The notes: generated from the letters alone by a model not told the origin. DNA of 64,000 nt from a virus (IMGVR_UViG_3300048670_001567:30536-94535), one strand, 5' to 3'. Numbered from the stretch's first letter, positions 24,866 to 50,317 are shown. Numbers and translations are program-made.

Positions 24866-25636
24866 TCAGACAGTCAAATTTTGATCAGATATTTCAAAAA
24901 TCCAGCGTTCAAAAATATTATCGTCAGCGTAATCTAGAGTTATCCAGCAATAGCCACCGGCTCCCCAGAAAATGCCATAACTGTTCTTGGCCAGAAACAA
25001 TTTTTTATCCAGGTCATAACCCACCAGTACCATGGCATGATCTCCCTCTGACTCGGTGTTGGCGTCGGGCAAAGAAATTGTTGCATTGTTGGCTCTTAGA
25101 TTTTCAAATCCTGGGTATATACTCATGCCTATGACCACTGGCAGATTCTGATTGAGTGCATCCAAGGTGTCTGCGTTATCATTCAGTCTTTGATAATTGG
25201 TAATGGATCTGGTGTCAGCTTCCCGATAGCAGTCATCAGTGGGTCGCACATTGACCAGATCACGCTGATAGGGCCACAACTCTTCTTTACAAACACCATA
25301 TTGCTGCAGGCTTTTTAATGCACTTCTCAGTGTGGTTATTCCTGCATCTGTTGTTTCTGATCCTTCCAGTAGTCTGGCATTGTAATAAACAAACAATCTG
25401 CTCAGTTCAACAAACTGATCGGGATACCTTTGTTTTACCTGCAATTCATAACTGTTGGTGATGGCATTGCCCGAGCAACTGCCCAACAGATGCTGATCTT
25501 CTATCAGAGAATCCCAGGATCTCAGATCTACTGATTTTCTGAGATCTTTACCCGTTTTCTGATAGATGTGATCACGACCATCAGGCCGACTCTGACCGAT
25601 GGGAAAATCATTCAGCATTGTTGTTCCTGGTGCCAC
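24866..25636 (-). CDS. papain-like cysteine protease (C1A)
   Basis: VDLR, DQ.LLGSC, LSRLFVYYNAR, HAMVLVGY, KNSYG.WG..GY. Confidence 0.92.
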   Translation of the reverse strand: MAPGTTMLNDFPIGQSRPDGRDHIYQKTGKDLRKSVDLRSWDSLIEDQHLLGSCSGNAITNSYELQVKQRYPDQFVELSRLFVYYNARLLEGSETTDAGITTLRSALKSLQQYGVCKEELWPYQRDLVNVRPTDDCYREADTRSITNYQRLNDNADTLDALNQNLPVVIGMSIYPGFENLRANNATISLPDANTESEGDHAMVLVGYDLDKKLFLAKNSYGIFWGAGGYCWITLDYADDNIFERWIFEISDQNLTV

Positions 25637-26174
25637 GTATTTCTTCTATCTTTCGAAGCAGAGACGGCAGTATACCTGTAGGCTCGGGCTCTGCCGCTCG
25701 GGCTTCTTTCATATAATCCATCAACTCCTGCACTGTGGGTGTGGGGGTAACTGTTGACGTTGTATCCGCTACTTCAACGTTGACAGTTTCCCTGACGTTG
25801 GCATCCATAGGTTCAGTAAATTCAATACTTTCCACAGCAACATCAGATTCAGGCTCTACAACAACAATATCTGGAGAAATGTCAGTATCAGATTTTACTG
25901 GTTCAGTGTTTGGTGGTTTTAACTCCTTTGTTGATGATTGACTCAGAAACTCCAGAAGTTTCTGAGCTCGAGCAATGATGTCATTTTCGTTAGGGTAGGG
26001 TGGAATTGGTGGATATGCCAGACGGACACGGCGTGTGCGCCAGAGTTCGTTGGATTCCACCAGCCACTGATTGTGCATTTCTGCTCGACGATCTGTGTGC
26101 TCGTTAATCACCAGTTCACGAGCCATGCGTAATATTTCCAAACTGTTAGAATCGAACTCAGGCATCATGCTCAC
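25608..26174 (-). CDS. hypothetical protein, paralogue of 29709..30140
   Basis: shared EIL(R/K)MARE...H.QWL...W...YP.E.DI.ARA domain. Confidence 0.75.
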   Translation of the reverse strand: MSMMPEFDSNSLEILRMARELVINEHTDRRAEMHNQWLVESNELWRTRRVRLAYPPIPPYPNENDIIARAQKLLEFLSQSSTKELKPPNTEPVKSDTDISPDIVVVEPESDVAVESIEFTEPMDANVRETVNVEVADTTSTVTPTPTVQELMDYMKEARAAEPEPTGILPSLLRKIEEIRGTRNNNAE

Positions 26175-26884
26175 CCAAAGATTGGATTGTCAAATCTGGT
26201 GGGCCTCAGAGATATAATTCCTCGGGCCAGGACTTCTGATAGGCCCAGATCAGGAGGATTTCCTGATATCAGATATTCTGACGCTCTGCGTAGACCGTCA
26301 CTGTCCAGGGACCAATTTTTGGCCATTCGGGCCTGAGTCTGGTCAACAATTGCTCCAGCGATTGCTGTCAATAAATCCATTACAGACTGCTGTGGCCATT
26401 GATTGGGAGCCAGATCATACAGGGCTTTAGATAAAGAGCCGATTTGATTTCTCAATTCAGTTTGTGCCATGGATACATCTTTATTTTCCACCAGACTATC
26501 AATCACTGCAACCAGACGATTGGTCAGATTGGAAAATTCTGTGCCTATTCCTTGAGCATCTGCCGACAAAAAAAACGGACTAACCAAGGGCATGAGTTTC
26601 GTCAGATTCTGATCGATTAATTTTCTAGCATCAACAGTAGCAGCAGCATCGCCAGAAATTTTGTTGACAATATAATTTCTCAGGTATGTCAAATAGTTGC
26701 TAAAATAATCCTTGGACATCATTCTCAGGGCCACTGCAGCAGGATTATATTCTATATTGCTGAAGGCGCCAGCCATTATGCGTTGTCCCTGAGTCATGGT
26801 GTTGCCACACTGCATTGCTGCAGTTGCTATTGCGGGGTGATCGTAATGTTCTTCTACAATATTGTGTGTAATTTTTTTGTACAT
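26171..26884 (-). CDS. helical-bundle protein, paralogue of 30390..31094
   Basis: shared MYKKITH.IVEEH N-terminus and P.QWP and RGII motifs. Confidence 0.75.
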   Translation of the reverse strand: MYKKITHNIVEEHYDHPAIATAAMQCGNTMTQGQRIMAGAFSNIEYNPAAVALRMMSKDYFSNYLTYLRNYIVNKISGDAAATVDARKLIDQNLTKLMPLVSPFFLSADAQGIGTEFSNLTNRLVAVIDSLVENKDVSMAQTELRNQIGSLSKALYDLAPNQWPQQSVMDLLTAIAGAIVDQTQARMAKNWSLDSDGLRRASEYLISGNPPDLGLSEVLARGIISLRPTRFDNPIFG

Positions 26885-26901
26885 TTTAAATTCTCCTTGT
26901 G

Positions 26902-27513
26902 TTAAGTTTGACTCATGTAAGTTACTGTGCCCACCAGAATGGTTCCAACTTTGACATCATCTATGACAAGATTGGTCAAACTCTGGCCAGGGTTCTGCTG
27001 ATACCACATGGTGGCCGAAGTGCTGGCAGATATAACAGTGCCGCCCAGGTAATTGACATTTTTATCAAAGTCTTTGTAGTAGGAAATCAGAACCGATCCC
27101 ACTGCACCAGTGTCGGTGATGCTGGTGAATGGCAGTCCGGTCAGTACTATTGGCTTATCAGAACCGCCTGTGATGGCAGTGATTTTAATGTCAAAAGTGC
27201 AAGTAACCAATTGACCAATTTTTGTGTATTTGGCATTACGTGTGCTGATGGTGATGCTGCCGGTGGGGCTGGGCACCAATGCAGGTGTCCAGGTGCCAAA
27301 GGCATAACTGGGACCACCACCGCCACCATTGGCACTGATGGTACCATCGGGGGTGACTGATATGTTGGCACCAATCTTGACCACACCCAGGGTAGTGGTG
27401 GTGGCTATTTCAGCATCCAGCACCACAGGTGCTATGGCCTGCGTGGGTGGCAAGGGAGTCTGTTTCAATCCCTGTCCTGCTCGGGTCACTGCTGGTGGTC
27501 TGGTGTATGCCAT
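26902..27513 (-). CDS. fibre/adhesin-like protein
   Basis: ATTTTLGVVKIG motif and GTWTP...YTKIG.LV...TGLPF tail-fibre-tip-like domain. Confidence 0.65.
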   Translation of the reverse strand: MAYTRPPAVTRAGQGLKQTPLPPTQAIAPVVLDAEIATTTTLGVVKIGANISVTPDGTISANGGGGGPSYAFGTWTPALVPSPTGSITISTRNAKYTKIGQLVTCTFDIKITAITGGSDKPIVLTGLPFTSITDTGAVGSVLISYYKDFDKNVNYLGGTVISASTSATMWYQQNPGQSLTNLVIDDVKVGTILVGTVTYMSQT

Positions 27514-27522
27514 GATTTTTCC

Positions 27523-28134
27523 TTAGACTGCGTTCCAGTTGGTGCCACGGAAGATCAGTGTCACACTGCCATCAGTGTCGGCAATGATGGCATAACTGCT
27601 GGTGTTTTCAATGGTTTCAGCACCATTGGGCACAATGGTGATGTTGCCAGTGTTGGTGACTTCACTCTTGATGATATAGGTGTTGCCGGCTCCGCCCACT
27701 GGCAAATTGATGGTCACCGCAGCGTTGGCTCTGACACCAATATAATAGTCGGATGCCAGGGCAGTGTAGGGACTGTCGGCCTGACTGATCAACCGGGTGG
27801 CCACATTGGGGCTGGCTGATGCTGCTATGGTCAGACTGGGCGCAACACCGGTGATGGTGATGTTATCGCCAGCTGTCAGCGAGGTGATGACTCGATTGCC
27901 GTTGTCCAACACCTGCCCACCACTGATGTTACCCAGAGCAACTATGTCATTGATGACATTTATGGTGTTGCCCACAAACAGATCAAAAGTGGATGAAATA
28001 TTACCAAATGTCACATTGGCAGTGGTGGAAATATCTTGTGGTATATCAACAACACCAGTGGTGACACTGATGTTGGCTCCTACTTCTACTACGCCATACC
28101 GGGTTTTTGATGCCAAGGGTGAATTATATGCCAT
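27523..28134 (-). CDS. fibre/adhesin-like protein
   Basis: YGVVEVGANISV N-terminal motif; C-terminal beta domain shared with 29233..29712. Confidence 0.65.
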   Translation of the reverse strand: MAYNSPLASKTRYGVVEVGANISVTTGVVDIPQDISTTANVTFGNISSTFDLFVGNTINVINDIVALGNISGGQVLDNGNRVITSLTAGDNITITGVAPSLTIAASASPNVATRLISQADSPYTALASDYYIGVRANAAVTINLPVGGAGNTYIIKSEVTNTGNITIVPNGAETIENTSSYAIIADTDGSVTLIFRGTNWNAV

Positions 28135-28137
28135 TTT

Positions 28138-28698
28138 TTATTTTCCTTTTAATTTAATTTCTAAAACAACTTTCTGTGTGTTGGTGCCGTCCTCAGTTTC
28201 AGCGGTGGCGCCAGTCGCAGTTTCGGTGTCTGTTTCGGTATCATCGTCACCGCCGATGATTTCTTCATAGTTTTTCATATTCAAAACATCACCGTCTTCA
28301 CTGAGATCAATTAAATTTTCAGTAATTTCATGTAATACCACATCAGTGCCAGCATCTTCCTTGGCATATTCCAGCAATCTGATCATCAGGGGCACTGTTA
28401 CCTTGATGGCATTGGATTCATCAGCCAGGACTGGATTGGAGTTACCATTCATGATACCAGCATGTTGTTGCCAGCCTGCGCACCAGTAGCGTGGTTTGAC
28501 TCGGGCTGACCATTTGTTACAGTAGTAGGATCTCAGATCAAAATGCTGACAATTGCTGCAAAATTGGTCGGCAGGAGCATTGCCGTAGACTGCAGGCTGG
28601 TAACTGTCGGGCAGTGACTCTGGTATGGGTTGTCCGTTGGGGTAAACTCGGGGTCTGACGTACATGATGGTTTCCTTTATAATTGTATGATGGTGCAT
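28138..28698 (-). CDS. HiPIP-like 4-Cys domain fused to a helical domain
   Basis: Y...CSNCQHF...C..W..V.P..WC..W resembles high-potential Fe-S proteins; VPLMIRLLEYAKED domain follows. Confidence 0.55.
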   Translation of the reverse strand: MHHHTIIKETIMYVRPRVYPNGQPIPESLPDSYQPAVYGNAPADQFCSNCQHFDLRSYYCNKWSARVKPRYWCAGWQQHAGIMNGNSNPVLADESNAIKVTVPLMIRLLEYAKEDAGTDVVLHEITENLIDLSEDGDVLNMKNYEEIIGGDDDTETDTETATGATAETEDGTNTQKVVLEIKLKGK

Positions 28699-29231
28699 CT
28701 TGCGCTGGTGGTCACTGGTCTGACCGGAGCCACTTGGGCAGGGGTACTCAATATTCGCATGGCTGTGTCGGTGCTCTGCCAGGCCACTTGCGTATTGTCT
28801 CCTGCATTAAGTGCCAGAGTAAAGTTCCAGCTGGCCACCAAAACCCCCAATCCCCCAGTAATAGAAATTTGAGAGTTGGTGTCTGGATAGTTGACACCGT
28901 TGCGCACCAACCAGATGTCTGCCAAATCGGTGCCGGCGTCGGTTTTGTCCATCTGCAATACGAATTGAAAATTATAGTTGGCAGTTTTACTCACAGTGAC
29001 CTGTGTGCCAGCCACCAGAGTGATGCCCACGTTAATGGCTGCGTTGTTGAAGCTGACAATATTAACAGCACCGGCCACGGGGTTGGTCTGTGTGACCGTG
29101 CTGTAAAAATATGCCTGATTCAACAGCGCCACAGGTACCACACTGACTACTCCATCGCTGGAGGTCAGGTTATTGCCCGGACGCATTACACCGTATTTGA
29201 CATTTGATGTGATGGGCGCGTTATAGGACAT
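28677..29231 (-). CDS. C1q/BclA-CTD-like fibre tip protein
   Basis: YGVMRPGNNL N-terminal motif; jelly-roll pattern ANYNFQF...IWL..NG...LNAGD. Confidence 0.55.
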   Translation of the reverse strand: MSYNAPITSNVKYGVMRPGNNLTSSDGVVSVVPVALLNQAYFYSTVTQTNPVAGAVNIVSFNNAAINVGITLVAGTQVTVSKTANYNFQFVLQMDKTDAGTDLADIWLVRNGVNYPDTNSQISITGGLGVLVASWNFTLALNAGDNTQVAWQSTDTAMRILSTPAQVAPVRPVTTSARCTIIQL

Positions 29232-29232
29232 T

Positions 29233-29712
29233 TTAGGTCACGTTCCATTCAGTTCCATTAAACACCACGGTGATGCTGCCATAGTCCAGGTCGATGACAT
29301 AATTGGCCTGACCGTCAATGGTGGTACCAGCAGGCACCACGTTGATGTTGTTGGTGGTGGCGTCACCGTCAATGTCCTTGATCACATAAACTTTACCAGT
29401 CACACTGACCGGCAAGTTCAGTGTCACGGGACCTGCCACATCCACACCCAGAAAGTATTGAGCACTGTTGGCAGTGAAGGGTGTAGTAGTAATTATTGTC
29501 ACTGGCACGTTTGCAAGTGTGCCGGCAGGCCCTGGTGGCCCTGGTGGCCCAGGTGGCCCAGGTGGTCCGACACCACCACCAATGTTGATGATGTCATTGC
29601 CCAGCCCACCAAAATTACTGGTGGCAATCTGCGGGACTGCGGTGGGCACAACTGGGCGTCGGAATATTGCAGGACGTCTGCGAGCAGGCAGAAACAATGA
29701 TAATGGTATCAT
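29233..29712 (-). CDS. short collagen-like protein with C-terminal beta domain
   Basis: (GPP)4GPA triplets. Confidence 0.8.
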   Translation of the reverse strand: MIPLSLFLPARRRPAIFRRPVVPTAVPQIATSNFGGLGNDIINIGGGVGPPGPPGPPGPPGPAGTLANVPVTIITTTPFTANSAQYFLGVDVAGPVTLNLPVSVTGKVYVIKDIDGDATTNNINVVPAGTTIDGQANYVIDLDYGSITVVFNGTEWNVT

Positions 29713-30140
29713 GATTTACTCCAAGTGGCTCGAAGCCGATTGAATCGGTCCATGATGCCGTCGGTGGCTGCGGTGACCTCTGTGAATAAGTTGTTGTCCA
29801 CAGTTGCAGCTGGCTCAGTGTTGGCTTCAGTATTGACGGGTTCAACTACAATTGCAGGTTGAACTTGTGTTGTTGTGGTGTCAACTGAAGGGTCACTGAC
29901 TAATAGTGTCTTGCTTAACTCAATGGCGCGGGCCAATATGTCAGTCTCTGAAGGATATAGTGGTGGTATGGGATAGGGCAGCAATGCACCTTTGGTGCGC
30001 CAGGCCTCATCAGCATCTCGCAACCACTGCAGATGATCTTCAGCACGTTGAGCGATAAACTCGCTGACCAATTGCTCTCGGGCCATCTTTAAAATTTCCA
30101 CATTTTTTGATAGGGTTTCTGAAGTCATGATGTTATCCAA
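29709..30140 (-). CDS. hypothetical protein, paralogue of 25608..26174
   Basis: shared N-terminal domain. Confidence 0.75.
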   Translation of the reverse strand: MDNIMTSETLSKNVEILKMAREQLVSEFIAQRAEDHLQWLRDADEAWRTKGALLPYPIPPLYPSETDILARAIELSKTLLVSDPSVDTTTTQVQPAIVVEPVNTEANTEPAATVDNNLFTEVTAATDGIMDRFNRLRATWSKS

Positions 30141-30384
30141 TACGATCTAAAAAAATCATGGTCAATGACACAGTCAATGACATCACGGCAGTGGCCACAC
30201 CAATGGCCTTGATGATTTGTTCGCGGCCCTGTGACCTCATTCGAGTGAGTTCGTCAATCTCTGCTTCAGCCTGGGCCAGTCTGCGCTCAATGGCTCGATA
30301 ACGATGACCACATATTTCCACATGTGCTTCCAAATTGTCTTTTTCAATGTCATCTGACTTTTTTGTGGTGTGGTGAACTATCAT
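30133..30384 (-). CDS. coiled-coil plus TM protein, paralogue of 1858..2124
   Basis: IEKDNLEAHVEIC versus IEKQNLEAHVELC. Confidence 0.7.
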   Translation of the reverse strand: MIVHHTTKKSDDIEKDNLEAHVEICGHRYRAIERRLAQAEAEIDELTRMRSQGREQIIKAIGVATAVMSLTVSLTMIFLDRIG

Positions 30385-30389
30385 TTAAA

Positions 30390-31094
30390 TTATCCTATGA
30401 CGAACGACAGAGGATACTGTGATATTATCCCTCTGCTAATTAGATCAGCAATGCTGGTATATCCCCGATTGGTGTGATTGGGAATGCCACTGACTGCCAC
30501 TTTGAGGATATTATCCAGGGCAATACTGTCAGCAGCAAAATCTTTATCGTATCTGGCCTGGAAGTCTTCCAGCCAGAATCTGGTCAGAGTGACCATCATT
30601 TCCGACATCAGGTCTCGAGGCCACTGACTGGGATTGAGTTCGTTAAGGTACAGGGCCAACTCATCAGCCTGTTTGCTCCAGATGGTTTCAAATACTTCGA
30701 CATCACGTCGATTCTTTATGGCATCAACCACCTTGGTGCCGTTGACGGCTATGGCAGTCAACAAGTTGCCCACCCGGGTACCAGCAGCTATACCATAGTA
30801 GGGCACAAAAAAATTACCAATTTCTGCTGCAGATTTTTTTAGATTTTTCTCCACAGTGGGCGTACTGTCCAGATTACCAAAGTCACTGACACTGAAGTTG
30901 ATCATGCCCAGACTGAATCTGGTCCAGAGTGTTCGGCTATCCATTCTGAATACCAGTGTGCGTTCGTTGATCACCAGAGCAGGCAGTTCGCCTGTGACGG
31001 GAGTCACCACCGATGCTGCTTTGATTGCACGAGATAGACCCGCAACATCATCGAAATGTTCTTCAACAATATCGTGTGTGATTTTTTTGTACAT
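30390..31094 (-). CDS. helical-bundle protein
   Basis: paralogue of 26171..26884. Confidence 0.75.
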   Translation of the reverse strand: MYKKITHDIVEEHFDDVAGLSRAIKAASVVTPVTGELPALVINERTLVFRMDSRTLWTRFSLGMINFSVSDFGNLDSTPTVEKNLKKSAAEIGNFFVPYYGIAAGTRVGNLLTAIAVNGTKVVDAIKNRRDVEVFETIWSKQADELALYLNELNPSQWPRDLMSEMMVTLTRFWLEDFQARYDKDFAADSIALDNILKVAVSGIPNHTNRGYTSIADLISRGIISQYPLSFVIG

Positions 31095-31105
31095 GTGTTG
31101 TTCTC

Positions 31106-31291
31106 TTAGTAAATTGCAGTGGGTGAAAAAATCTGGTTGATGCCAGCAGCCGCACCAGTATTGATGACACTCTGATTGGCCAGCTGACTTTGAAAAGCAT
31201 TAACGCCATAGTTTGCGTAGTATGATTGATAGGGTGGATACAAGGGTTGCATATATGGACTTCTGTAGTACGGATAGTAATAACCAAACAT
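31106..31291 (-). CDS. Tyr/Pro-rich small protein with NAFQSQ...VINTG C-terminal motif
   Basis: AGGAG RBS; motif shared with 31527 and 32096 proteins. Confidence 0.85.
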   Translation of the reverse strand: MFGYYYPYYRSPYMQPLYPPYQSYYANYGVNAFQSQLANQSVINTGAAAGINQIFSPTAIY

Positions 31292-31311
31292 TTTGTTAAT
31301 CTCCTATTAAA

Positions 31312-31336
31312 ATAGCGGGCTCTAAGAGCCCGCTAT
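31312..31336 (-). terminator. internal terminator/attenuating hairpin
   Basis: 12-bp perfect inverted repeat ATAGCGGGCTCT/AGAGCCCGCTAT followed by a short T-run on the minus strand. Confidence 0.75.
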
Positions 31337-31344
31337 CACTACTT

Positions 31345-31506
31345 TTAGTACGGATAACCGTAGAAGCCGCCCCAGTATGGATATGCAAAACCTCCATAGT
31401 AGGGATATCCTATGCCTGCTGCCAGGTATGGTCTCATACCAAACCCACCGCAGCCGCCATATGGATAACAACCGCCAAAGCCACCGTAACCCCATGGTCT
31501 AAACAT
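31345..31506 (-). CDS. 53-aa Gly/Tyr-rich peptide (not in ORF track)
   Basis: MFRPWGYGGFGGCYPYGGCGGFGMRPYLAAGIGYPYYGGFAYPYWGGFYGYPY; GGAGG RBS. Confidence 0.85.
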   Translation of the reverse strand: MFRPWGYGGFGGCYPYGGCGGFGMRPYLAAGIGYPYYGGFAYPYWGGFYGYPY

Positions 31507-31526
31507 AATGCTTTTCCTCCTTTGGG

Positions 31527-32084
31527 TTAAGTCCCAATACGTGTTGGATTATTGTTCTGTGTGGTGTTGGCAATGTTGCCAGTATTAACCACACGTTGAC
31601 CGCTAATCTGACTACCAAATGCATTGATTAAACTATTGGTGTTGGCACTTTGTACTGCACTGTTCAACCCACCGTACGCCAGACCCAGACCACCATAGGC
31701 AACACCCACGCCAGTCAAGGCAGTGTTGGTGTTGATCAATGCTGTGTTCAGGTTCTGTGTGTTCAGGAAGTTGACCAAACCACGAGTGGCTTCGCCTTGT
31801 TCCATGACCAAACGCTGGGTTGACATGGCCGAGGCGCCCACTGCAGCACCACCGCGCGATTCGGCCAACATGGCTTCCACAGTGCCTTTGTTAACTGCCT
31901 GCTTGAGATCAGCAAATGCTGATGTATTACGCAAGGCCACCTGCATGCCACGATTGTTGATGTCGTTGGTCTGTGCAACACTTAGTTTATATCCTTCAAA
32001 CACACCATCAGAAACCTTGGTCTTGGTAGCCTCGATTTCTCTTGATAGTGCGTAGAAGGGATCCATTGTAAATTCTCCAGCCAT
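31527..32084 (-). CDS. Ala/Asn/Thr/Gly-rich putative structural subunit (copy 2)
   Basis: tandem paralogue of 32096..32656; AAGGAG RBS. Confidence 0.85.
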   Translation of the reverse strand: MAGEFTMDPFYALSREIEATKTKVSDGVFEGYKLSVAQTNDINNRGMQVALRNTSAFADLKQAVNKGTVEAMLAESRGGAAVGASAMSTQRLVMEQGEATRGLVNFLNTQNLNTALINTNTALTGVGVAYGGLGLAYGGLNSAVQSANTNSLINAFGSQISGQRVVNTGNIANTTQNNNPTRIGT

Positions 32085-32095
32085 TTTATATCTCC

Positions 32096-32656
32096 TTAAA
32101 GGATGTTAGTGGGGTTCGCTGTCTGAGTTGTACCAGTCATTGTCCCAGTATTGATAACACCTTGGCTTGCTAGTTGGCTTTGAAAAGCATTGATCGCACT
32201 GTTGGTGTTAGCACTCTGATAGGCAGTGTTCAAACCACCATAAGCCAGACCCAAACCACCGTAAGCCAGACCACCACCAACCAATGCTGTGTTGGTATTG
32301 ATCAGTGCTGTGTTTAGGTTCTGTGTGTTCAGTGCGTTGACCAAACCACGTGTGCGCTCGGCTTCTTCCATGATCAGACGTTGTGTTGCCATGGCAGTTG
32401 CGCCAATCTGTGCGTCTGTGCGACTTGCTGCCAACATGGTTTGCAGTGTACCGTCTGCTACGGCTTGCTTGAGATCAGCCAATGCTGTGGCATCATGCAG
32501 AGCAACCTGCATGGCACGATTGTTGATGTCGTTGGTTTGAGCTACTTGTAGTTTGTAGTTCTCAAAAATACTGTCTGAAACTTTGGTCTTGGTTGCTTCT
32601 ATTTCTCTGCTTAGAGCATAGAAAGGATCCATTACATAACTTGTTCCGTCGGCCAT
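32096..32656 (-). CDS. Ala/Asn/Thr/Gly-rich putative structural subunit (copy 1)
   Basis: MDPFYALSREIEATKTKVSD, LNTQNLNTALINTNTAL and AYGGLGLAYGGLN identical in both copies. Confidence 0.85.
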   Translation of the reverse strand: MADGTSYVMDPFYALSREIEATKTKVSDSIFENYKLQVAQTNDINNRAMQVALHDATALADLKQAVADGTLQTMLAASRTDAQIGATAMATQRLIMEEAERTRGLVNALNTQNLNTALINTNTALVGGGLAYGGLGLAYGGLNTAYQSANTNSAINAFQSQLASQGVINTGTMTGTTQTANPTNIL

Positions 32657-32731
32657 TTTATATATCTCCTAATTAAGATTATGAGCATTTTTTCATACTC
32701 ATAGATACTTAGAAGATATATGGTGGCGATT

Positions 32732-32746
32732 TGCTCGACTTGAGTC
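32732..32746. promoter_or_regulatory. candidate operator TGCTCGACT-NN-AGTC
   Basis: 13/15 match to the inverted copy at 33523..33537. Confidence 0.5.
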
Positions 32747-32757
32747 TGACCTGTACT

Positions 32758-33513
32758 TTAATTGATAGTACTTTTACTTCGCTGATTAAACAGCACCAAC
32801 TGAGTACGATTCTTGACACCGTATTTTTTAAATATGGCACTCATGTGCAATTTTACAGTGCTTTCGGATATCCGGAGCAGTCTGGCGATGACCTTGTTGC
32901 TGGCGCCCCGTTCAGACACCAACTTCAAAATTTGATCCTGGCGGGGAGTCAGTATGATATCACCGTCCCGTATCAGATCTCGAGAAGTTTTCTTGCGAGG
33001 GTGCATCAACTGTTGGATCTTTTCCGGAATGTGTGGATGGCCTGCTTCCAGTTCATCCAGAGCCAGCTTTTTCTCCAGTGGAGTAAACTCATCACCACCG
33101 GGATAGATACCCAATATGCCAGTACTCAGGGCATCTCTGATTAGGTGTGTGTCAGTGCTCATATCTGCTCGAACTGCCACCCAAGTGGCCCTGCGTTGAG
33201 TTCGACCCTGTTCTGTCCTGTACACAGTGCATTTTATCAGAGTCAGCAATGTCTGCAATATTTCATAAACTTCACTGATTTGATTTTTAGCGAAATGTGA
33301 CAGGTCCACCACAATCAAATCAATACAGACGTTGGCGTCACTGATCAAAGGAAATAGTTCCTGAATGGTGTCAATTTTACTATAGCATCTGCCAGAACTG
33401 GCGGCTGTTCGTTGCATGTCCAGACAGTGTTCTTGTGCATTTACATAAATTATATTAGGCATGTTGTTCAAATTCCCCGTGTAGTTAATAGTACTTACTA
33501 GTACACCTAACAA
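32758..33513 (-). CDS. LuxR/NarL-family regulator (degenerate receiver plus HTH)
   Basis: LTPRQDQILKLV...SNKVIARLLRISESTVKLHMSAIFKKYGVKNRTQL; start may be MPNII at 33462. Confidence 0.92.
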   Translation of the reverse strand: MLGVLVSTINYTGNLNNMPNIIYVNAQEHCLDMQRTAASSGRCYSKIDTIQELFPLISDANVCIDLIVVDLSHFAKNQISEVYEILQTLLTLIKCTVYRTEQGRTQRRATWVAVRADMSTDTHLIRDALSTGILGIYPGGDEFTPLEKKLALDELEAGHPHIPEKIQQLMHPRKKTSRDLIRDGDIILTPRQDQILKLVSERGASNKVIARLLRISESTVKLHMSAIFKKYGVKNRTQLVLFNQRSKSTIN

Positions 33514-33522
33514 AGTTTTATT

Positions 33523-33537
33523 GACTTGAGTCGAGCA
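33523..33537. promoter_or_regulatory. candidate operator (inverted copy)
   Basis: GACTTGAGTCGAGCA. Confidence 0.5.
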
Positions 33538-33614
33538 TACACTTCAGTATAGGTATTGCATATCTGATATCGATGACAGTCATCGATATTTGATCAAAAA
33601 ATTTTACCAAAAAA

Positions 33615-33641
33615 AACCACGTAAAATTATTTTACGTGGTT
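33615..33641 (-). terminator. rho-independent terminator insulating the LuxR module
   Basis: AACCACGTAAAAT/ATTTTACGTGGTT inverted repeat plus T-run. Confidence 0.75.
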
Positions 33642-33875: not shown

Positions 33876-34439
33876 TCAAGGATTTTTGGTGGTTTTGAAG
33901 AAAATATGATTACCAATTTTGGCTACGATTTTTCTTTTCCACGCTGGATCAGACACCACATCATAACGATGAAAGAAAAAGGTGTCTGCGCTGATGGCAG
34001 GCAATCTGAATCCGTCAACAAAAACTTTTCGGGCAGCAATATAACTGGGATGATTGCTGCTGACTCGTAAATTTTTTCTGCGTGTGGGGTCACAATACCA
34101 ACTGAATTGACAAACTCTGCTGCCATTTTTAACAACATTCTGCGCAACAACTCTGCAGATATCATCTGGGTATCGGCTACTGCGTGCTCGATTCACAGTG
34201 ACCTGCGCCACTGCCAACTGACCTCGCATGGGTTCTGATCCTGCCTCATAATATACATTGCGAGCCAGGCAAGCCAATTGTCGATCTATACTTTTTAGAT
34301 TGGCCCGATACTTTGATTCCACTGCATAAGCATTGGGCGGCAATTCTCCGCCGTTAATGGCTTGTGGTACTGCTGTTATTCCAACTGTGGACATTATTGC
34401 CCAGGTTAGTAAATTTCTGAAGCGGCGACTGGCCTTCAT
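33876..34439 (-). CDS. SleB-like cell wall hydrolase (Hydrolase_2)
   Basis: CLARNVYYEA, AVAQVTVNR, CQFSW, IGNHIF; N-terminal signal/TM. Confidence 0.92.
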   Translation of the reverse strand: MKASRRFRNLLTWAIMSTVGITAVPQAINGGELPPNAYAVESKYRANLKSIDRQLACLARNVYYEAGSEPMRGQLAVAQVTVNRARSSRYPDDICRVVAQNVVKNGSRVCQFSWYCDPTRRKNLRVSSNHPSYIAARKVFVDGFRLPAISADTFFFHRYDVVSDPAWKRKIVAKIGNHIFFKTTKNP

Positions 34440-34648: not shown

Positions 34649-35482
34649 TTACTCCAAATTTAAAACTCCAGGATTCCTGTTCAGAAAGTCCTGTCTGAAA
34701 TAGTTCCAGACGTCATACAGTTCATCACTCTGGTGGCGGTTTATTTCCACTTTGAGATCGCTCAGTGCCTGAACGGCAGCAAACACCTGCTGATACTTGG
34801 GCAACACTGACGCCTTGGTATGACGATATGCCAGACACCTGATGTTTTCCAATTCGATAAATGTGGGCAATAGTCGTTCAATCAGGAAGGTAAAGTTGGG
34901 CAGTGTTGAGTCGTGTGCGTAGTTGCTGAGACCCTGACCAAACACCAGATTCTCAAACTCGCCATCCTGGTCCGCCTCAGTAAACAAACGACGACTGAAT
35001 GTCATGAATTTATCCCAAAACTCTGGGGTGCCCACCACGTAGTTGGTATACACGGTGCGATTTCTGTCCAGTAATATGCCGCGCACATCCACATCGGTAT
35101 AGCCCAATTTTTTCAAGAATCGATTGCCAATATCAGATATGTTGGGGTGATAATAATCGCCCTGCTCCCAGCAGTTGGCAAACACAGCTTCGTTGACAAT
35201 GCAGGGATTGATCAGATAAACATCATGACCAGGATTGGCTGCAATCCAATCCAGCACAGTCTGCCCTGCCAATCCAGTCTTTTCCTGAAATTTCCAGCTG
35301 ACATAGCCCCACAGGTCCAGACCACTGACCATACGCTGTTCATGGTACTGATCCCAGACATGCCATTCTCGTAATTCTGGGCGGGTATTGGCAGTGTTGT
35401 CCAGTGGCTCAAATGCTGTGTCGCAATGTTCTAATAGTTCAGGCTTATAATATATTTGAAAAATTTTTATGTTGTTGGACAT
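34649..35482 (-). CDS. glycosyltransferase-like hypothetical protein
   Basis: IFQIYY, GYVSWKF and FLIERL motifs; in sugar operon. Confidence 0.55.
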   Translation of the reverse strand: MSNNIKIFQIYYKPELLEHCDTAFEPLDNTANTRPELREWHVWDQYHEQRMVSGLDLWGYVSWKFQEKTGLAGQTVLDWIAANPGHDVYLINPCIVNEAVFANCWEQGDYYHPNISDIGNRFLKKLGYTDVDVRGILLDRNRTVYTNYVVGTPEFWDKFMTFSRRLFTEADQDGEFENLVFGQGLSNYAHDSTLPNFTFLIERLLPTFIELENIRCLAYRHTKASVLPKYQQVFAAVQALSDLKVEINRHQSDELYDVWNYFRQDFLNRNPGVLNLE

Positions 35483-36194
35483 AGGGTGCTATTTCCTCGG
35501 TAAGATCCCGGCTGCGCGGAATAAATTCAGTGGCCAGTCGGTGTTCCAGTGTTTCTCTGTTGGTGATGTGATGAAACCCCCAGTTTCTCTGACGATCGAT
35601 CAGGGGTATCTGTGTCTGTATTTGCAACTTTCGGGATATGGTTTGCTGATCAAACGGACACCAGCCATAATAAAATATCACCAGTTGGTCAGTGGTATAT
35701 TCACCATAGTGTCTGCCAGGCACAGGATACAGAATCGGTACGTTGTGTATGCTTCTGGCTCCGCGATCTACAAAGTGCTCCCGATAACTAAATCCCTGAG
35801 TCTTTTGCAGGTATAATGGCAGCTCTGGTGTGACTGTCTGATCTGGATCGGTGTCCACAAAAAAAATCGAAGGTATAAGAAATTGTCCGGGTTGATCATC
35901 CAAAATTGAATAATTGCCCATCAATAGTTCTGTGACATTCAGACAAATGCGCCATCCCTGAATATTCCACTCGATGTCCATGACTTCATAATCCACTGCA
36001 TCGGCTTGAAAATTGGGATTTCGACTGGTGATAATGTCCCAATCAGGACAAAGTTCCCGAATAATTTCCCTGCTGCTATCTGTGCTGTGATAATCGATCA
36101 TTATGCCATGATCGAAAACCTCACGGTGGTGCCTGAGGAACCAGGGCAACATGTATTCTTCATTGTAAAAATGACACAATACAGTTTTTTTCAT
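35445..36194 (-). CDS. glycosyltransferase family 2-like
   Basis: FYNEEYMLPWFL.HH, IDY.STD.S. Confidence 0.75.
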   Translation of the reverse strand: MKKTVLCHFYNEEYMLPWFLRHHREVFDHGIMIDYHSTDSSREIIRELCPDWDIITSRNPNFQADAVDYEVMDIEWNIQGWRICLNVTELLMGNYSILDDQPGQFLIPSIFFVDTDPDQTVTPELPLYLQKTQGFSYREHFVDRGARSIHNVPILYPVPGRHYGEYTTDQLVIFYYGWCPFDQQTISRKLQIQTQIPLIDRQRNWGFHHITNRETLEHRLATEFIPRSRDLTEEIAPYVQQHKNFSNIL

Positions 36195-37411
36195 TGTTCT
36201 ACACTGATTTTGGGGAAATACCTAACAAACACGTCATCGCCCTGATCACGTCGGGATTTGATTTTTGCACGAATTTCGGCGAAAAAATTCCAGGCCAGGG
36301 GGACGAAAGCCAATTTGTGCTGCTCCAGACCGGTCAAGGCATCAATTCCCACCACTGCATCACCAGTGCCTGGAGTATAGAGCCCCTGCTTTAAAGGATT
36401 GTCGTCGATGATGAAATCCAGTCGGATCTGACCAAAATTCAACAGAGTCATGCCCTTGGCTGCAGCGCCGTAGCCCACCAACTTGTAGCCGCGAGCACGA
36501 AACTCGTCCAGAGTATTTATGAGATCTTTGATGACTTGCCGGCACCGTTCTGCATAGACGTCGTAGGTGATGAGATTTTGTAATCCCAGTTCACGCTCTT
36601 GCCGTAGTACCTGGTCAACCATTGTGGTGTTGCCAGGGGGTTTTCCGATAACAAACACATAACTATTGCCATGGATGGGTGTTTTTACAATGTCCAACAG
36701 GTGCAATCCAGCACGCTTCACCAGCGCATGCATGCTGTTGGCATTGAAGAAACTCAGATGCTCGTGATATATGGTGTCAAATTCATTATTTTTTACCATG
36801 TCAGCCTGACTGGTCTGCACAAACAATCTGCTGCCATCGTGCATGATTTCCCTGCAGGTTTTCAAAAATTCCAGAGGATAACTGTTGTGTGCAAAGACAT
36901 TCTGTGCTGTGATGACATCTAAATTTCGGTTCTTGAGTTCGCCGGTGTGCCTGGCTGTGAAGTAATCGCAGATCACCTGATGATTTTGAGAACTAAGCTC
37001 ATATAAATTTTCTGCTGGGTCGATGCCGTAGGTCCGGAGTCCCAAATTCTGAAAGGCATTCAACTGACTGCCATCATTGCAGGCAATATCCAATACAGAC
37101 TGTGGTGGAGTATCGTAGTATTCCAGCGTAAATCTGGCAAACCAGTCAAAATAGTCTCGCAGAGTCTGGCTGGTTCCGCTCACATACAGATAATTTCTGA
37201 ACAGCAGATCAGGATCAACTGAATGACTCAGTTGCAGATGGGTGCAATTGGTGCACAGATTTAGTTGCAGAGGAAACGTCAATTCCTCTTGGTCTGCGGT
37301 TTTTTTGAAACTGTTGGCCATGGGTTGCTGATTCAGATCCAGCACCAGCTTTAAATCAGATGCGCCACAACACAGGCATTCTGTCAATTCTTTACAATGG
37401 GGTATATTCAT
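36191..37411 (-). CDS. NDP-hexose C-methyltransferase
   Basis: Zn-binding CLCC...C..C, DIACNDG, DTIYHEH, YGAAAKG, DDNPLKQG, AWNF. Confidence 0.92.
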   Translation of the reverse strand: MNIPHCKELTECLCCGASDLKLVLDLNQQPMANSFKKTADQEELTFPLQLNLCTNCTHLQLSHSVDPDLLFRNYLYVSGTSQTLRDYFDWFARFTLEYYDTPPQSVLDIACNDGSQLNAFQNLGLRTYGIDPAENLYELSSQNHQVICDYFTARHTGELKNRNLDVITAQNVFAHNSYPLEFLKTCREIMHDGSRLFVQTSQADMVKNNEFDTIYHEHLSFFNANSMHALVKRAGLHLLDIVKTPIHGNSYVFVIGKPPGNTTMVDQVLRQERELGLQNLITYDVYAERCRQVIKDLINTLDEFRARGYKLVGYGAAAKGMTLLNFGQIRLDFIIDDNPLKQGLYTPGTGDAVVGIDALTGLEQHKLAFVPLAWNFFAEIRAKIKSRRDQGDDVFVRYFPKISVEQ

Positions 37412-38324
37412 TGAGGTGTCCTTCATAATAAATGTATTGATCCCTTCTTTGCAATCGAGATTCAGTGTACCTTTGACAAAGACTCTCCAGTATGGATGCA
37501 GGGGTTTCCCGAAATTGAAAATTGAAGCATTTCTGAAATAATTCAGTGCTCAGGGCAAAATCATAGGCATTGCCCACCAGCCCCTGGTCTATGACTTTGA
37601 TGTCTAATATATCCGCAAGTTGTGTGGCCAGGTCCTGGACAGTGATATTGAAACTGGACAAGTTATATATGCCAGGCACCGGATTTTCCAGACATTGACC
37701 AATTGCTCGACACAGATCTTCTATGCCCAGGATGGCTCTACTGATGTGGCCATTGGTTATGGTGATGTGATTGTTGTTGCGTACAGTTTCATACATGGCA
37801 TTGATCATGACATCAGTGCGCAACACTGGACTCCAGCCATTAACTGTACCAAAACGCAGCCCAATGATGTTTCTGCCCTGTAGTCGGGCATTTTCCGCAG
37901 TGATATCCAGCACATATTTGGTCACATCGTAATTGTTGACCGGAACGAATCCCAAGTTGTTTTCAGTATGTGGTGAATCAGGCTGGCTGTTACCATAGAC
38001 GCTGGCTGAACTGGCATAGACGATCAACTGGTCCTGACTGGTCTTGGCCAATAAATCTGTAAAGTTTGTGACATTATTGAACCAGGCAGATTGGATTGGT
38101 CCGTCACAGGTTTTAACACTACTGTGCCCTGCCAGCAATATCACAGCATCAAATCTTTGCAACTCATGGGCCGATAGTTCCCGATAATCCATGACGATGG
38201 ATTCGGTGTTCTGAGAAAACCAACCGATGTCCACACCAGTCACCAGATGACGTTCTGACAACACCTGGCACAATCTGGAGCCAATGTAACCATTGGCTCC
38301 AATGATTAAAATATTTTTCATCAA
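37392..38324 (-). CDS. NAD-dependent epimerase/dehydratase
   Basis: GANGYIG, ASSASVYG, YDVTK, LRFGTV. Confidence 0.92.
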   Translation of the reverse strand: MMKNILIIGANGYIGSRLCQVLSERHLVTGVDIGWFSQNTESIVMDYRELSAHELQRFDAVILLAGHSSVKTCDGPIQSAWFNNVTNFTDLLAKTSQDQLIVYASSASVYGNSQPDSPHTENNLGFVPVNNYDVTKYVLDITAENARLQGRNIIGLRFGTVNGWSPVLRTDVMINAMYETVRNNNHITITNGHISRAILGIEDLCRAIGQCLENPVPGIYNLSSFNITVQDLATQLADILDIKVIDQGLVGNAYDFALSTELFQKCFNFQFRETPASILESLCQRYTESRLQRRDQYIYYEGHLNEYTPL

Positions 38325-39067
38325 TCGATAATCATCATGCCATTGGGGGCAATGTTGCCCTGTAACCCCACGCGATCCAATTCAACCACCAGGTTATCCG
38401 GAATAAATTTGGCCATACTGTGTTCCACATCAATGTATTTTTGTCGATTGATGGTATCAAACATATTTTCCAAAATCTTCTGGAACAGACTGGTGGTATC
38501 GGCGAACAGGCTGGGCGTAAATGACCAGAGTCTGGTCTGTCGCAGACTGGTCACCCCGGTGTCCTCGCTGGGAATCCAGCTGGGCTGTGACTTCTTGAAT
38601 ACATATTTGTTCTGTGTGGTATCGTTGTCAAAAGCCTGGATGTCGAATTTGTCGGTGAGCACATATCTGCCACTGAGCTTGAAAATTCTGGCTGACTCAG
38701 TCACCCGGGACATCATGTCGGCGTCGCTGGCTATGTAATTCAGTGCTTTGAAAATGCCCAGACATTCCATGGCATTTTTACCAACATCGTAATTGCTGAC
38801 ATTGTTGTGAAAATGCTGAATGTCTGCATCATCACTGTTGTCGATGTAATAGTCCACTAGATCAATCAGCTGATTAAATTCTGCCGAATCATCATTCTGC
38901 ACATCAATAGTGCTGTTATCAATCAAAATAATAGTGGCCTGTGGCAAATACTTACGAACGCTCTGCGCAGTATCCAGGGTTTGTTTGATACGCTCTTGAG
39001 GTGTGTAAATGCCATAGTTACTGTAAACTGCACTGGTCAATAAAACTGTATGCCGATTATCCATTAT
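38321..39067 (-). CDS. hypothetical glycan-related protein
   Basis: LTSAV, ER..QT and FKLSGRY motifs; likely start MDNRH. Confidence 0.6.
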   Translation of the reverse strand: MMDNRHTVLLTSAVYSNYGIYTPQERIKQTLDTAQSVRKYLPQATIILIDNSTIDVQNDDSAEFNQLIDLVDYYIDNSDDADIQHFHNNVSNYDVGKNAMECLGIFKALNYIASDADMMSRVTESARIFKLSGRYVLTDKFDIQAFDNDTTQNKYVFKKSQPSWIPSEDTGVTSLRQTRLWSFTPSLFADTTSLFQKILENMFDTINRQKYIDVEHSMAKFIPDNLVVELDRVGLQGNIAPNGMMIID

Positions 39068-39728
39068 ATACCCCTCCCAGACGCTCTGGAACAACTTTGC
39101 CATTCTTCTCAAAAACCACCACACTGTCATAAAAATGTGTGCTGGTGAGCCCATGATAAAAATCAGCCAACATCATGTTATCAGGGTGCCGATCCAGCCC
39201 CCGGAAGTATTCCACGTTGACCACGTCAGACACTGTTTTGGCATATTCAGTAAAAGACGTGGACTTCTTAAGACCGCCACCACTGAATTCTGGCCAGTAA
39301 CTGGTATGTGTGTCCTCACACATAAACACACCACCCTGATTCAGATGCGGCCAGACTTTTTGCAGTGTCAGGATCTGTTGAAACTGATGGTGACCGCCGT
39401 CATCTAAAAATACATCAATCCGGGGGCGAGTTTCCAGAAACTTGTCCCAAAATGCAGGGTCGCCCTGATCACCAATGATGACTTCGCAGCCATCAGTCTG
39501 ATAGTTCCTGCAGTTTTCATCAATGTCAATGCTGATGATGGTAGCGCCTGGACCAAAATACTTCTTCCACATCTCGGCACTGCCACCACGATACATGCCC
39601 ACTTCCACAAACACTGGGCTCTGACCCACAAACTTTTGGAAATGACGCTCGTAAATGTCGAAATAATGACTCCACTTGTCGCAATGCTTGTCCAGATTGT
39701 CATAAATCTCTTTTAGCATCGGAGCCAC
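39057..39728 (-). CDS. SAM-dependent (sugar O-)methyltransferase
   Basis: EVG..GGS..MW, IGDQ, DDGGH, GG..CEDTHTSY. Confidence 0.88.
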   Translation of the reverse strand: MAPMLKEIYDNLDKHCDKWSHYFDIYERHFQKFVGQSPVFVEVGMYRGGSAEMWKKYFGPGATIISIDIDENCRNYQTDGCEVIIGDQGDPAFWDKFLETRPRIDVFLDDGGHHQFQQILTLQKVWPHLNQGGVFMCEDTHTSYWPEFSGGGLKKSTSFTEYAKTVSDVVNVEYFRGLDRHPDNMMLADFYHGLTSTHFYDSVVVFEKNGKVVPERLGGVYNG

Positions 39729-40741
39729 CGCTCATTGGCCAGGGTCCATTCCACAACTTCACCAATGCGTTGAGTCAGGCTGATCTTGGGTTCCCAACCC
39801 AGCTCACGCATGTAATCGCCGCTCAGAGCGTAACGCAGATCGTGGCCGGGTCGGCTGCTGTGAAAGTCCACCATTTCATACTTGAGTGGCCGGCCCTGTG
39901 CATCAGCAATGATTTGTGCCAGTTGCAGATTGTTGATTTCTTCCTTGCCCACCAGGTTAAACTTGGGACACTTGGCATCACCGTAGTCGGGTTTGAGCTT
40001 GGAGGCATCTAGGTTCAGCAGAAACAGCATGGCGTCGGCGACGTCTGCAGCATGGATGTAGTATCGGCTGCCAGGAATAGTACGAGTGGCGTCTGAGTGA
40101 ATGGTAATGGTGTCACCGTCATGCACCTTACGAATACACATGGGAATAAACTTTTCAGGATGCTGGCGCTGACCAAACACGTTCATGGTGTGGGTGATGA
40201 AAATTGGCAACTTGTAGGTGTTTTCAAAAGCCACTGCCAGTTCTTCACCACCGGCCTTGGTGGCTGAGTAGGGGTTGCTGCTGTTGTAACGATCACGCTC
40301 TGCATAGTTGACGCCATTGGGTGCTGGTCCAAAAACTTCGTCGGTACTAAAATAGATGAGTCTTTCCAGATTTGGCAGATCTCGAGCATAATTTAGAATG
40401 TTGCAAGTGCCCACCACGTTGTCCAGCACGAACTCCATGGGATAGTCGATGCTGCGATCCACGTGACTGCCAGCTGCCAGATGCAGTACGTAATTGACAT
40501 CGCCAATGTCCTTACGCACCAGGGGGTTCAGTTCTGCTCTGAGATCATGAAACACCACACGAACTCTACGCTTGGTCTCTGCGTCAAAGTCCTGCATCAT
40601 GTCTGCCAGACGATTTAGATTGCCTGAAAAGTCCAGTCGGTCCAGACTGACGATATTCCAGTCAGTGTTTTTTAGTAGGTTTTCGATAATATGGTGTGCA
40701 ATAAATCCTGCACCACCTGTTATCAGGACGGTTTTTGCCAT
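39713..40741 (-). CDS. rmlB: dTDP-glucose 4,6-dehydratase (RmlB-like)
   Basis: TGGAGFI, AAGSHVDRSI, STDEVFG, PYSATK, QHPEKFIP, RPGHDLRY. Confidence 0.92.
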   Translation of the reverse strand: MAKTVLITGGAGFIAHHIIENLLKNTDWNIVSLDRLDFSGNLNRLADMMQDFDAETKRRVRVVFHDLRAELNPLVRKDIGDVNYVLHLAAGSHVDRSIDYPMEFVLDNVVGTCNILNYARDLPNLERLIYFSTDEVFGPAPNGVNYAERDRYNSSNPYSATKAGGEELAVAFENTYKLPIFITHTMNVFGQRQHPEKFIPMCIRKVHDGDTITIHSDATRTIPGSRYYIHAADVADAMLFLLNLDASKLKPDYGDAKCPKFNLVGKEEINNLQLAQIIADAQGRPLKYEMVDFHSSRPGHDLRYALSGDYMRELGWEPKISLTQRIGEVVEWTLANERWLRC

Positions 40742-47532: not shown

Positions 47533-47606
47533 TGGAGCGGCATGCCAGAATCGAACTGGCGACTTTAGCTTGGAAGGCTAAGGTAATACCATTTTACGAA
47601 TGCCGC
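47533..47606 (-). tRNA. tRNA-Gly(TCC)
   Basis: cloverleaf with encoded CCA. Confidence 0.93.
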
Positions 47607-47614
47607 ATACGTTT

Positions 47615-47698
47615 TGGTGGGCGGGGAGAGACTCGAACTCTCACGCCTCACGGCACTGGCTTCTAAGACCAGCGTGGCTACCATTACACCACCCGCCC
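47615..47698 (-). tRNA. tRNA-Leu(TAG)
   Basis: cloverleaf, long variable arm, CCA. Confidence 0.93.
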
Positions 47699-47799
47699 GC
47701 AATCTTACTTATCTGTAACAAACACAGCAGAAATAATTAGCGACAACAATGGGAGATGATTGCCAAATATCCATAAATACTTGTGTACTGGGAGCCGTT

Positions 47800-48294: not shown

Positions 48295-48300
48295 CCCAGT

Positions 48301-48780: not shown

Positions 48781-48815
48781 GTATTTAACAAACTAACGTT
48801 ACAGGATTATTAAAC

Positions 48816-50315: not shown

Positions 50316-50317
50316 TG

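Follow-up and report, generated by a model that had tools for sequence, protein, structure and literature searches.

The window analysed here is a 64,000-nucleotide stretch of viral DNA (IMGVR_UViG_3300048670_001567:30536-94535), the right-hand 64 kb of one 94.5-kb viral contig. It carries a cassette of 16 co-oriented open reading frames (ORFs) on the minus strand, at 24866-33513 of the window, with intergenic gaps of -29 to +20 nt except for 101 nt after the LuxR gene and 53 nt after the Gly/Tyr peptide gene. The initial annotation, made from the sequence alone, had correctly taken the DNA for that of a phage and described the frames as co-oriented and tightly packed, but had counted 15 genes. 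On the upstream side the cassette is bordered by an intrinsic-terminator-like hairpin with a T-run (33615..33641, minus strand; -15.2 kcal/mol, z -3.95), which ends the upstream gene for a SleB-type hydrolase.

The first gene of the cassette (32758..33462) encodes a regulator with a LuxR/GerE helix-turn-helix (HTH) domain; its frame is open up to a TTG at 33513. It is followed by two paralogs that are 72% identical, ANT1 (32096..32656), a 186-aa protein rich in Ala, Thr and Asn, and ANT2 (31527..32084). As described in the initial annotation, a Gly/Tyr peptide and a Tyr/Pro peptide come next: the former (31345..31506) has 53 aa with 17 Gly, 12 Tyr and 2 Cys and a conserved motif, RxYLAAGIGYPY, and the latter (31106..31291) has 61 aa. 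MYKK1 (30390..31094) is a 234-aa orphan named from its conserved N-terminus, MYKKITHxIVEEH. An 83-aa coiled coil with a C-terminal transmembrane (TM) segment, by its sequence tail-anchored, lies at 30133..30384, and cc1 (29709..30140) has a conserved N-terminal helical domain of ~75 aa, a Thr/acidic linker and a basic C-terminal end. The fibre genes are then interrupted by one gene for a 4-Cys protein with an acidic C-terminal half (28138..28698). They encode a fibre with a short collagen stretch and a gp9/gp10-like knob (29233..29712), a fibre whose N-terminal part has a YGV motif and whose head is weakly BclA_C-like (28677..29231), the core fibre (27523..28134), and a fibre that combines an N-terminal GVVKIG motif with a Gly run and a head domain (26902..27513). 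The cassette ends with MYKK2 (26171..26884), cc2 (25608..26174) and a papain-family (C1) cysteine protease (24866..25636). The duplicated gene types seen at first are real, since MYKK1 and MYKK2 are 26% identical (E 9e-27) and cc1 and cc2 match at E 3e-21. By inspection, no module protein has a signal peptide, the protease included.

Searches of every module protein against Pfam, PHROGs and NCBIfam matched only the LuxR HTH, Peptidase_C1 and weak tail-fibre PHROGs. No family was found for the MYKK, coiled-coil and 4-Cys proteins in profile and database searches. A match of the TM coiled coil to a "GTA head formation protein" (19 bits against a cut-off of 50) was judged to be coiled-coil noise. 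The 4-Cys protein, which had been called HiPIP-like, retains nothing of that label except the pattern C-x2-C-x9-C-x13-C, with no Pfam match at E 0.01 or better.

IMG/VR was scanned with ANT1, MYKK1 and a profile of distant ANT relatives, which gave 118 loci. When all window proteins were compared with the loci by tblastn, the same gene order recurred in more than 60 viral contigs, so that the homologues do occur together as a module. The full order is regulator, one or two ANT genes, Gly/Tyr peptide, Tyr peptide, MYKK, TM coiled coil, coiled coil, variable fibres, MYKK and protease. Components were counted in the 64 distinct IMG/VR loci with full flanks, which are related to one another so that the counts overstate independence. 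ANT is present in 64/64 by construction, the loci having been found through it; the gp10-like knob fibre occurs in 54 loci and one or more Tyr-rich peptides in 52, while 38 loci have the LuxR-HTH regulator, 34 the C1 protease, 31 the coiled-coil protein and 23 MYKK. Two other fibre heads are found in 22/64 and 18/64 loci, the 4-Cys protein in 15 and the TM coiled coil in 9. A reduced form, consisting of ANT, a coiled-coil-knob fibre, a second fibre, the protease and two Tyr peptides, is common in contigs of 220-400 kb. The number of fibre paralogs differs among loci, as expected for host-contact parts. At one locus (L027:3213 onward) the Gly/Tyr peptide ORF continues directly into the C-terminal sequence of the C1 protease, which looks like an internal deletion of everything between. 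A layout of this kind, which the initial annotation could assign to no named system, is found in none of Pfam, PHROGs, NCBIfam, PDB or the literature searched, and that literature holds no description of the cassette.

As the initial annotation had proposed, the gene at the head of the cassette encodes a LuxR-type regulator: its HTH belongs to the GerE family (Pfam PF00196; E 2.6e-15, 56.2 bits against a cut-off of 23.5). The best NCBIfam matches, CsgD and NarL, cover the HTH region only and fall far under the cut-off; there is no Pfam Autoind_bind match, and the SdiA model covers only the HTH. Inspected by eye, the regulator's N-terminal half shows a beta-alpha pattern and a single Asp (IDLIVVDL) without the DD pair and the Lys, and it gives no match to Pfam Response_reg. 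It appears to be receiver-like in a form that Pfam does not recognise.

A bipartite promoter-like element, CTGAAGTG-N40-TAAGTACT, stands before the LuxR gene (33490..33547, minus strand), and a similar element stands before the LuxR genes of many related loci. The presence of this conserved element makes the ATG at 33462, rather than the TTG at 33513, the probable start of the regulator. A second copy, TTAAAGTA-N40-TAAGTATC (32704..32761, minus strand), precedes ANT1. In most loci TAAGTAWT is found before ANT, with a CTGAAGTA-like sequence ~40 nt further upstream, and the regulator gene is preceded by the same two-part element. The ANT1 ribosome-binding site is separated from the TAAGTA element by a leader hairpin (32680..32703, minus strand; -12.8 kcal/mol, z -4.9), which directly follows TAAGTAWT across loci, its position kept and its sequence different.

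The use of these elements was surveyed in 91 distinct loci, 52 with the regulator and 39 without. TAA[GC]TA lies upstream of ANT in 50/52 loci with the regulator and, at chance level, in 6/39 without it (Fisher p = 2e-16), and the T4 late-promoter octamer TATAAATA lies there in 0/52 and 22/39, respectively (Fisher p = 7e-11); both p values overstate independence because the loci are related. TAAGTA was also considered as a general promoter of this phage and rejected, since outside the module it occurs at chance frequency. The regulator probably acts on the TAAGTA element, and the presence of the element before its own gene suggests a dedicated, autoregulated activator. TATAAATA occurs 7 times in the window against 1.75 expected, fourfold the chance frequency, which suggests that the phage uses T4-type late promoters. 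Since the T4 late promoter is used wherever the regulator is absent, the module appears to serve a late function. The association between element and regulator, together with the conserved gene order, agrees with the original view of the cassette as one regulated module.

The two hairpins reported in the initial annotation are both far better than shuffled sequences. The first is the one at the upstream border. The second, a terminator or attenuator, lies 3' of the Gly/Tyr peptide gene (31312..31336, minus strand; -20.7 kcal/mol, z -4.8). A hairpin and T-run follow the gene for the corresponding peptide in 28/28 related loci, each at -15.8 kcal/mol or stronger, and the ANT and Gly/Tyr peptide genes have strong ribosome-binding sites. 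The conserved hairpin suggests that the cassette makes mainly ANT and the Gly/Tyr peptide and that the remaining genes are expressed by read-through, which gives comparative support to the proposal of major and minor subunits.

ANT1 is predicted by AlphaFold to form one long helix, residues 11-163, with a pLDDT of ~90 over residues 30-120 and ~60 after 130. The last third of ANT consists of GLAYGG repeats and then a Gln/Asn/Thr motif, SQ[IL]..Q.[IV]N[TFY]G.M. Longer relatives (220-450 aa) have the same C-terminus and extra N-terminal DIRRE-type amphipathic repeats, which give weak apolipoprotein matches. The family comprises 103 representative clusters at 50% identity and, for the long form, at least 685 clusters at 90% identity, with no named members and, among the representatives, no fused forms. 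Two long proteins that matched the ANT profile turned out to be leucine-rich-repeat proteins, and these matches are spurious. At 62%, the mean column identity of ANT is the highest of the module, compared with 60% for the BclA_C-like fibre and 39-46% for MYKK, the Tyr/Pro peptide and two fibre families. No ANT was found among ~185,000 GTDB species genomes, nor among 50,697 records of cultured or deposited phages. Cultured phages also gave no DNA match to the window and only three distant protease matches. Profile searches of the PDB gave nothing usable for ANT, its long relatives, MYKK or the fibres, nor did the ESM Atlas for MYKK or ANT.

The Tyr-rich peptides fall into two conserved types. 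Type 1, represented by the Gly/Tyr peptide, is Gly/Tyr-rich or Tyr/Pro/Arg-rich and has two Cys. Type 2, represented by the Tyr/Pro peptide, has a Tyr-rich head and, in every lineage examined, repeats the ANT tail motif at its C-terminus; in the window the motif occupies the C-terminal half of the peptide, which matches the ANT1 tail at E 1e-8. The peptides have no Pfam, PHROG or NCBIfam match. The likeness to CotT-type spore-coat peptides that had been suggested for them is therefore compositional, no coat family in these databases being matched.

A long helix with a low-complexity tail, late timing and the lack of signal peptides would also suit a structure that never leaves the cell. In such a case the module would form a helical filament, a scaffold or an aromatic, Gln/Asn-rich condensate that organises particle assembly, with the fibres as its clients or adaptors. 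The apolipoprotein-like amphipathic repeats of the longer ANT relatives fit this idea, as do the Tyr/Arg-rich peptides of larger phages, which are strongly "sticky" in composition. The idea is purely compositional, however; it leaves the gp9/gp10-type knobs and BclA-like heads without a role, and the module shows no resemblance to the cytoskeletal or nucleus-shell proteins known from phages. We regard it as unlikely.

The fibres share a design in which an N-terminal YGVVxVG is followed by a short beta or collagen stalk and then by an adaptor-type knob or a weakly BclA_C-like head. The core fibre has the conserved N-terminus MSYL..YGVVxVG..INV (MxY..YGVVxVG in its general form), a beta-rich middle and a knob at residues 109-203, for which a C-terminal beta sandwich is predicted with pLDDT >90. 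The knob superimposes on the XD domain of CBA120 TSP4 (7rej_B) with a VIA Z of 12.6 and an rmsd of 1.8 Å over 91 residues. Z is 12.0 for the KP1 baseplate protein (9f4b), 10.5 for T4 gp10 (5iv5) and gp9 (1qex), and 10.5 for the Pa223 capsid spike. The rmsd to the TSP4, KP1 and T4 gp9/gp10 structures is 1.6-2.1 Å, unrelated folds begin at Z 3.8, and the Foldseek E is 1e-4. As modelled, the commonest fibre knob has the T4 gp9/gp10/tailspike-adaptor fold, a trimer-type beta sandwich. Domains of this type are those by which T4-like and Vi-like phages join on and branch their fibres. The 373 matches to the knob in BFVD include tail-fibre, Gp9/Gp10 and collagen proteins, and relatives of the knob give weak Phage_depo_C matches. 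Pfam T4_gp9_10_N is matched by no window protein; the knob of a related module matches it below threshold (20.1 bits against a cut-off of 25).

The knob of the collagen protein is homologous to that of the core fibre (E 2e-15). Its collagen part consists of GPP x4 and GPA, so that the collagen sequence reported at first is present but too short for a match to Pfam Collagen, and no long Gly-X-Y run was found in this protein. One relative of the 26902-27513 fibre does match Pfam Collagen; the head of that fibre has no usable PDB profile or family match. In the family of the 28677-29231 fibre, BclA_C is matched by 3/15 members (best E 0.0011) and the exosporium protein 7r1m in the PDB at E 0.064. 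The initial annotation had joined the collagen to a C1q-like head as in BclA: one head is indeed weakly BclA_C-like, but the commonest knob has the gp9/gp10 adaptor fold. It had also named two outcomes that would speak against a self-assembled shell, namely that the homologues do not co-occur as a module, or that they map to known capsid or tail components and form no higher-order assembly. The genes do co-occur, and through the knob fold they map in part to known tail components, which is half of the second outcome.

The weak similarity to BclA_C and the exosporium protein is one of several points in favour of an exosporium-like or coat-like layer or matrix round the virions or the infected cell, with ANT as a helical basal lattice, the peptides as cross-linkable cement and the collagen/BclA-like fibres as a nap. 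ANT and the Gly/Tyr peptide would be its major, jointly terminated products, Tyr-rich peptides are present in 52 of the 64 loci, the C-terminal motif common to ANT and a peptide suggests co-assembly, and the HTH of the regulator is of the GerE/CsgD type. In addition, the complete 385-kb genome L117 keeps ANT and a peptide without fibres. Against such a layer, the coat-protein similarities are compositional or below threshold, the module has neither secretion signals nor an oxidase, transglutaminase or other cross-linking enzyme, and its commonest knob is a tail/baseplate adaptor fold; phages are not known to build a coat or matrix layer. The protein shell, matrix or filament of the initial annotation, modelled on spore coats, thus finds no direct sign in these data, the spore link resting on composition and weak matches. 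A coat or matrix is doubtful. Much the same doubt attaches to a regulator-controlled, self-assembling composite, in which ANT rods, Tyr peptides that lock onto their tails and knobbed fibres would coat or embed the virions for protection or adhesion.

The module protease matches PF00112 (Peptidase_C1, E 6.3e-13; 49.7 bits against a cut-off of 20.7), as expected from its first description as a papain protease. Its nearest solved relative is xylellain (PDB 3ois, E 6.5e-30), with the Gln, Cys, His and Asn all aligned, and the Cys and His are retained in ~42/44 homologues. Judged by these residues, the protease is a compact, intact papain-family enzyme. In one lineage (L091-L093, ~12097-12828) the catalytic Cys is lost, with IGTSVGK instead of LGSCSGN; there the protein is probably a pseudo-protease kept in the cassette.

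The protease also has a weak match to Peptidase_C39_2 (E 0.0016). Small conserved peptides next to such an enzyme, under a LuxR-type regulator, raise the question whether the Tyr/Gly-rich peptides are precursors of modified peptides or bacteriocins and the C1/C39-like protease their leader peptidase. This is highly improbable: the module lacks genes for a modifying enzyme, for transport and for immunity, no leader/core layout is seen in the peptides, one of them shares its tail with a structural-looking protein of 186 aa, and fibres are present as well in 54/64 loci.

The gene immediately upstream of the module (33876-34439) encodes a cell-wall hydrolase of the SleB type whose N-terminal segment is signal-like. 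Homologues are found near the module in few other loci (L036-L038 and L053). The protease and the membrane-associated coiled coils could attack the envelope together with this hydrolase, in lysis or egress. The late timing, the TM coiled coil, the proximity of SleB here and in those 4 loci, and a distant protease homologue annotated as an endolysin in one phage are consistent with such a role. However, SleB adjoins the module in only 1/64 full loci and the TM protein is present in only 9/64; ANT, the peptides and the fibres are left unexplained, and no C1 peptidase is known as a muralytic enzyme. A lytic role is very unlikely.

Among the products of the source contig are two helicases, one of the gp41/DnaB type and one UvsW-like, and radical-SAM enzymes; the contig's CheckV completeness of 27% implies a genome of roughly 350 kb. 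The gp23 gene was not found on this 94.5-kb fragment. Among 10 carrier records tested, 5 encode a gp23-type major capsid protein (PF07068, E 1e-78 to 1e-99). The records are 131-400 kb long or, at a CheckV completeness of 27-33%, imply ~350 kb. By these sequence criteria the carriers are gp23-type (T4-like) phages of ~250-400 kb. In the 258-kb relatives L063-L066, psbA (photosystem II D1; L063:16701-17795, E 4e-207 to PDB D1 chains) lies 6 kb from a reduced module, which marks those carriers as cyanophages. The proteobacterial host put forward in the initial annotation is conjectural. The cassette is restricted to very large uncultured T4-like phages from freshwater-type metagenomes, cyanophages included. 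Giant open frames that start with a T4_gp9_10_N domain are found in two of the carriers, at G003:C1:129581 (5826 aa, the record behind L059) and G004:C1:255249 (2381 aa, behind L097), so that these phages also appear to carry giant conventional baseplate-attached fibres elsewhere in the genome.

Taken together, the cassette may be a self-contained module of uncultured giant T4-like phages that is expressed late and equips the virion with an accessory apparatus of fibres or "hair". This is the reading that we favour, tentatively and at somewhat below an even chance. It is the most economical because it accommodates the adaptor-domain fibres, the late timing, cytoplasmic assembly, the variable number of fibre copies and the range of hosts, the module being found in phages of different hosts, psbA-carrying cyanophages among them. 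The cassette would make short trimeric knobbed fibres on the particle for adhesion, from proteins assembled in the cytoplasm like other virion parts. The adaptor-type knobs would dock the small fibres on each other or on the particle, in the manner of branched tail fibres, and ANT would serve as a helical shaft or an anchoring layer. The Tyr-rich peptides may act as cement, one of them joining ANT via the shared C-terminal motif, and the intact C1 protease may mature some component. Late expression would come from the T4 late promoter TATAAATA in lineages without the regulator, and in LuxR lineages TAAGTA would have replaced TATAAATA.

Several observations weigh against accessory fibres. No module protein has been seen in any virion, and known virion families are matched neither by ANT and MYKK nor by the coiled-coil proteins and the Tyr-rich peptides; the most conserved and (by inference) most expressed parts, ANT and the Gly/Tyr peptide, resemble no virion protein. 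The module lies among accessory genes, 30-240 kb from gp23, and virion genes do not usually have a regulator of their own. The knob is well conserved, unlike the usual receptor-binding tip. L117 keeps the LuxR gene, ANT, a Tyr peptide and the coiled-coil protein with no fibre or protease nearby, which suggests that the fibres may not be the core of the module. No ANT is carried by cultured phages, and the kinship of the loci lowers the weight of the counts. The intracellular, lytic and peptide-product explanations are weaker still than that of a coat or matrix.

Other genes near the module and elsewhere on the contig were noted. A nucleotide-sugar/glycosylation island upstream of the module (34649-40741) encodes two NAD-dependent epimerase/dehydratases, a C-methyltransferase and a GT2 enzyme; it also encodes a protein of 277 aa (38321-39154) that matches CotH kinase below threshold (E 1.6e-4). 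A glycosylation link between the module and this island was dropped, since other loci show no synteny of such genes with the module. A cluster of 11 tRNA genes lies at 47533-50391, all on the minus strand. The 684-aa protein encoded at 52424-54478 combines FG-GAP and RTX nonapeptide repeats with a serralysin-type C-terminal domain, and from these looks like a type-1-secretion substrate of the phage. Upstream of the window the source contig encodes a full-length DnaK (L049:7497-9401), 67% identical to gammaproteobacterial DnaK, with NrdA/NrdB and a RimK-like protein near its gene. In the 400-kb phage of L097, a porin-like protein with a signal peptide, by eye, adjoins the module (L097:13531-14406), and a rubrerythrin-like protein is encoded ~6 kb upstream of it (L097:3430-3903).

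The cassette may tentatively be placed among phage fibre modules, and it contains several new protein families. It is common, occurring in more than 100 viral contigs and at least 685 ANT protein clusters. Described families account for the regulator HTH, the protease and the gp9/gp10-like knob and for none of its other components. The cassette likely represents a new virion appendage built from families so far undescribed. The extremely Tyr-rich micro-proteins are conserved as genes and are usually missed by gene callers. The exchange of a T4 late promoter for a private regulator-promoter pair is a natural experiment in phage gene regulation. If the product were a coat or matrix and not fibres, it would add a new type to the structures known from phages, and a composite would be the phage equivalent of the exosporium nap or of keratin and its matrix. 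Only a product other than a virion appendage would be new as a category.

Among known systems, the exosporium and spore coat of Bacillus (BclA as a collagen/C1q-like nap above a basal layer of ExsFA/BxpB; the Tyr-rich CotC/CotU; GerE as regulator) share with the cassette a collagen stretch with a knob, a weakly BclA_C-like head, very Tyr-rich small proteins and a GerE-family HTH regulator. The cassette differs in that it shows no significant coat-protein homology, its collagen stretch has just 5 triplets, it lacks morphogenetic proteins of the CotE/CotH type, and its carriers are T4-like phages, some of them cyanobacterial. Keratin filaments with their high-glycine-tyrosine proteins offer an analogy in composition and stoichiometry, a helical rod with a Gly/aromatic tail accompanied by peptides of 5-7 kDa with ~55% Gly+Tyr and paired Cys; keratin and the keratin-associated proteins have no homology to the module, and the likeness is one of analogy only. 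Xylellain, the C1 protease of Xylella fastidiosa (3ois), resembles the module protease as a compact bacterial-type papain domain without the classical long prodomain, but the phage enzyme ends a structural gene cassette. The T4 fibritin (wac) whiskers and the phi29-type head fibres are comparable as helical rod proteins that are accessory to the virion, late and accompanied by other fibres. They have no sequence similarity to the module, and ANT, at 186 aa, ends in a Gly/Tyr and Gln/Asn tail, not in a foldon.

The closest parallels are T4 gp9 and gp10-gp11-gp12, the XD domain of CBA120 TSP4 and the baseplate of Klebsiella phage KP1, which have the same knob fold and several small paralogous fibres side by side. 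The N-terminal YGVVxVG of the fibres may also resemble the GV(I/V)KL repeats of T4 gp12. In those phages the adaptor domain is the N-terminal part of large baseplate proteins, whereas here it is C-terminal in proteins of ~160-240 aa. The cassette genes lie far from the structural cluster, and they include a regulator, a protease, Tyr-rich peptides and a helical orphan, none of which those systems have.

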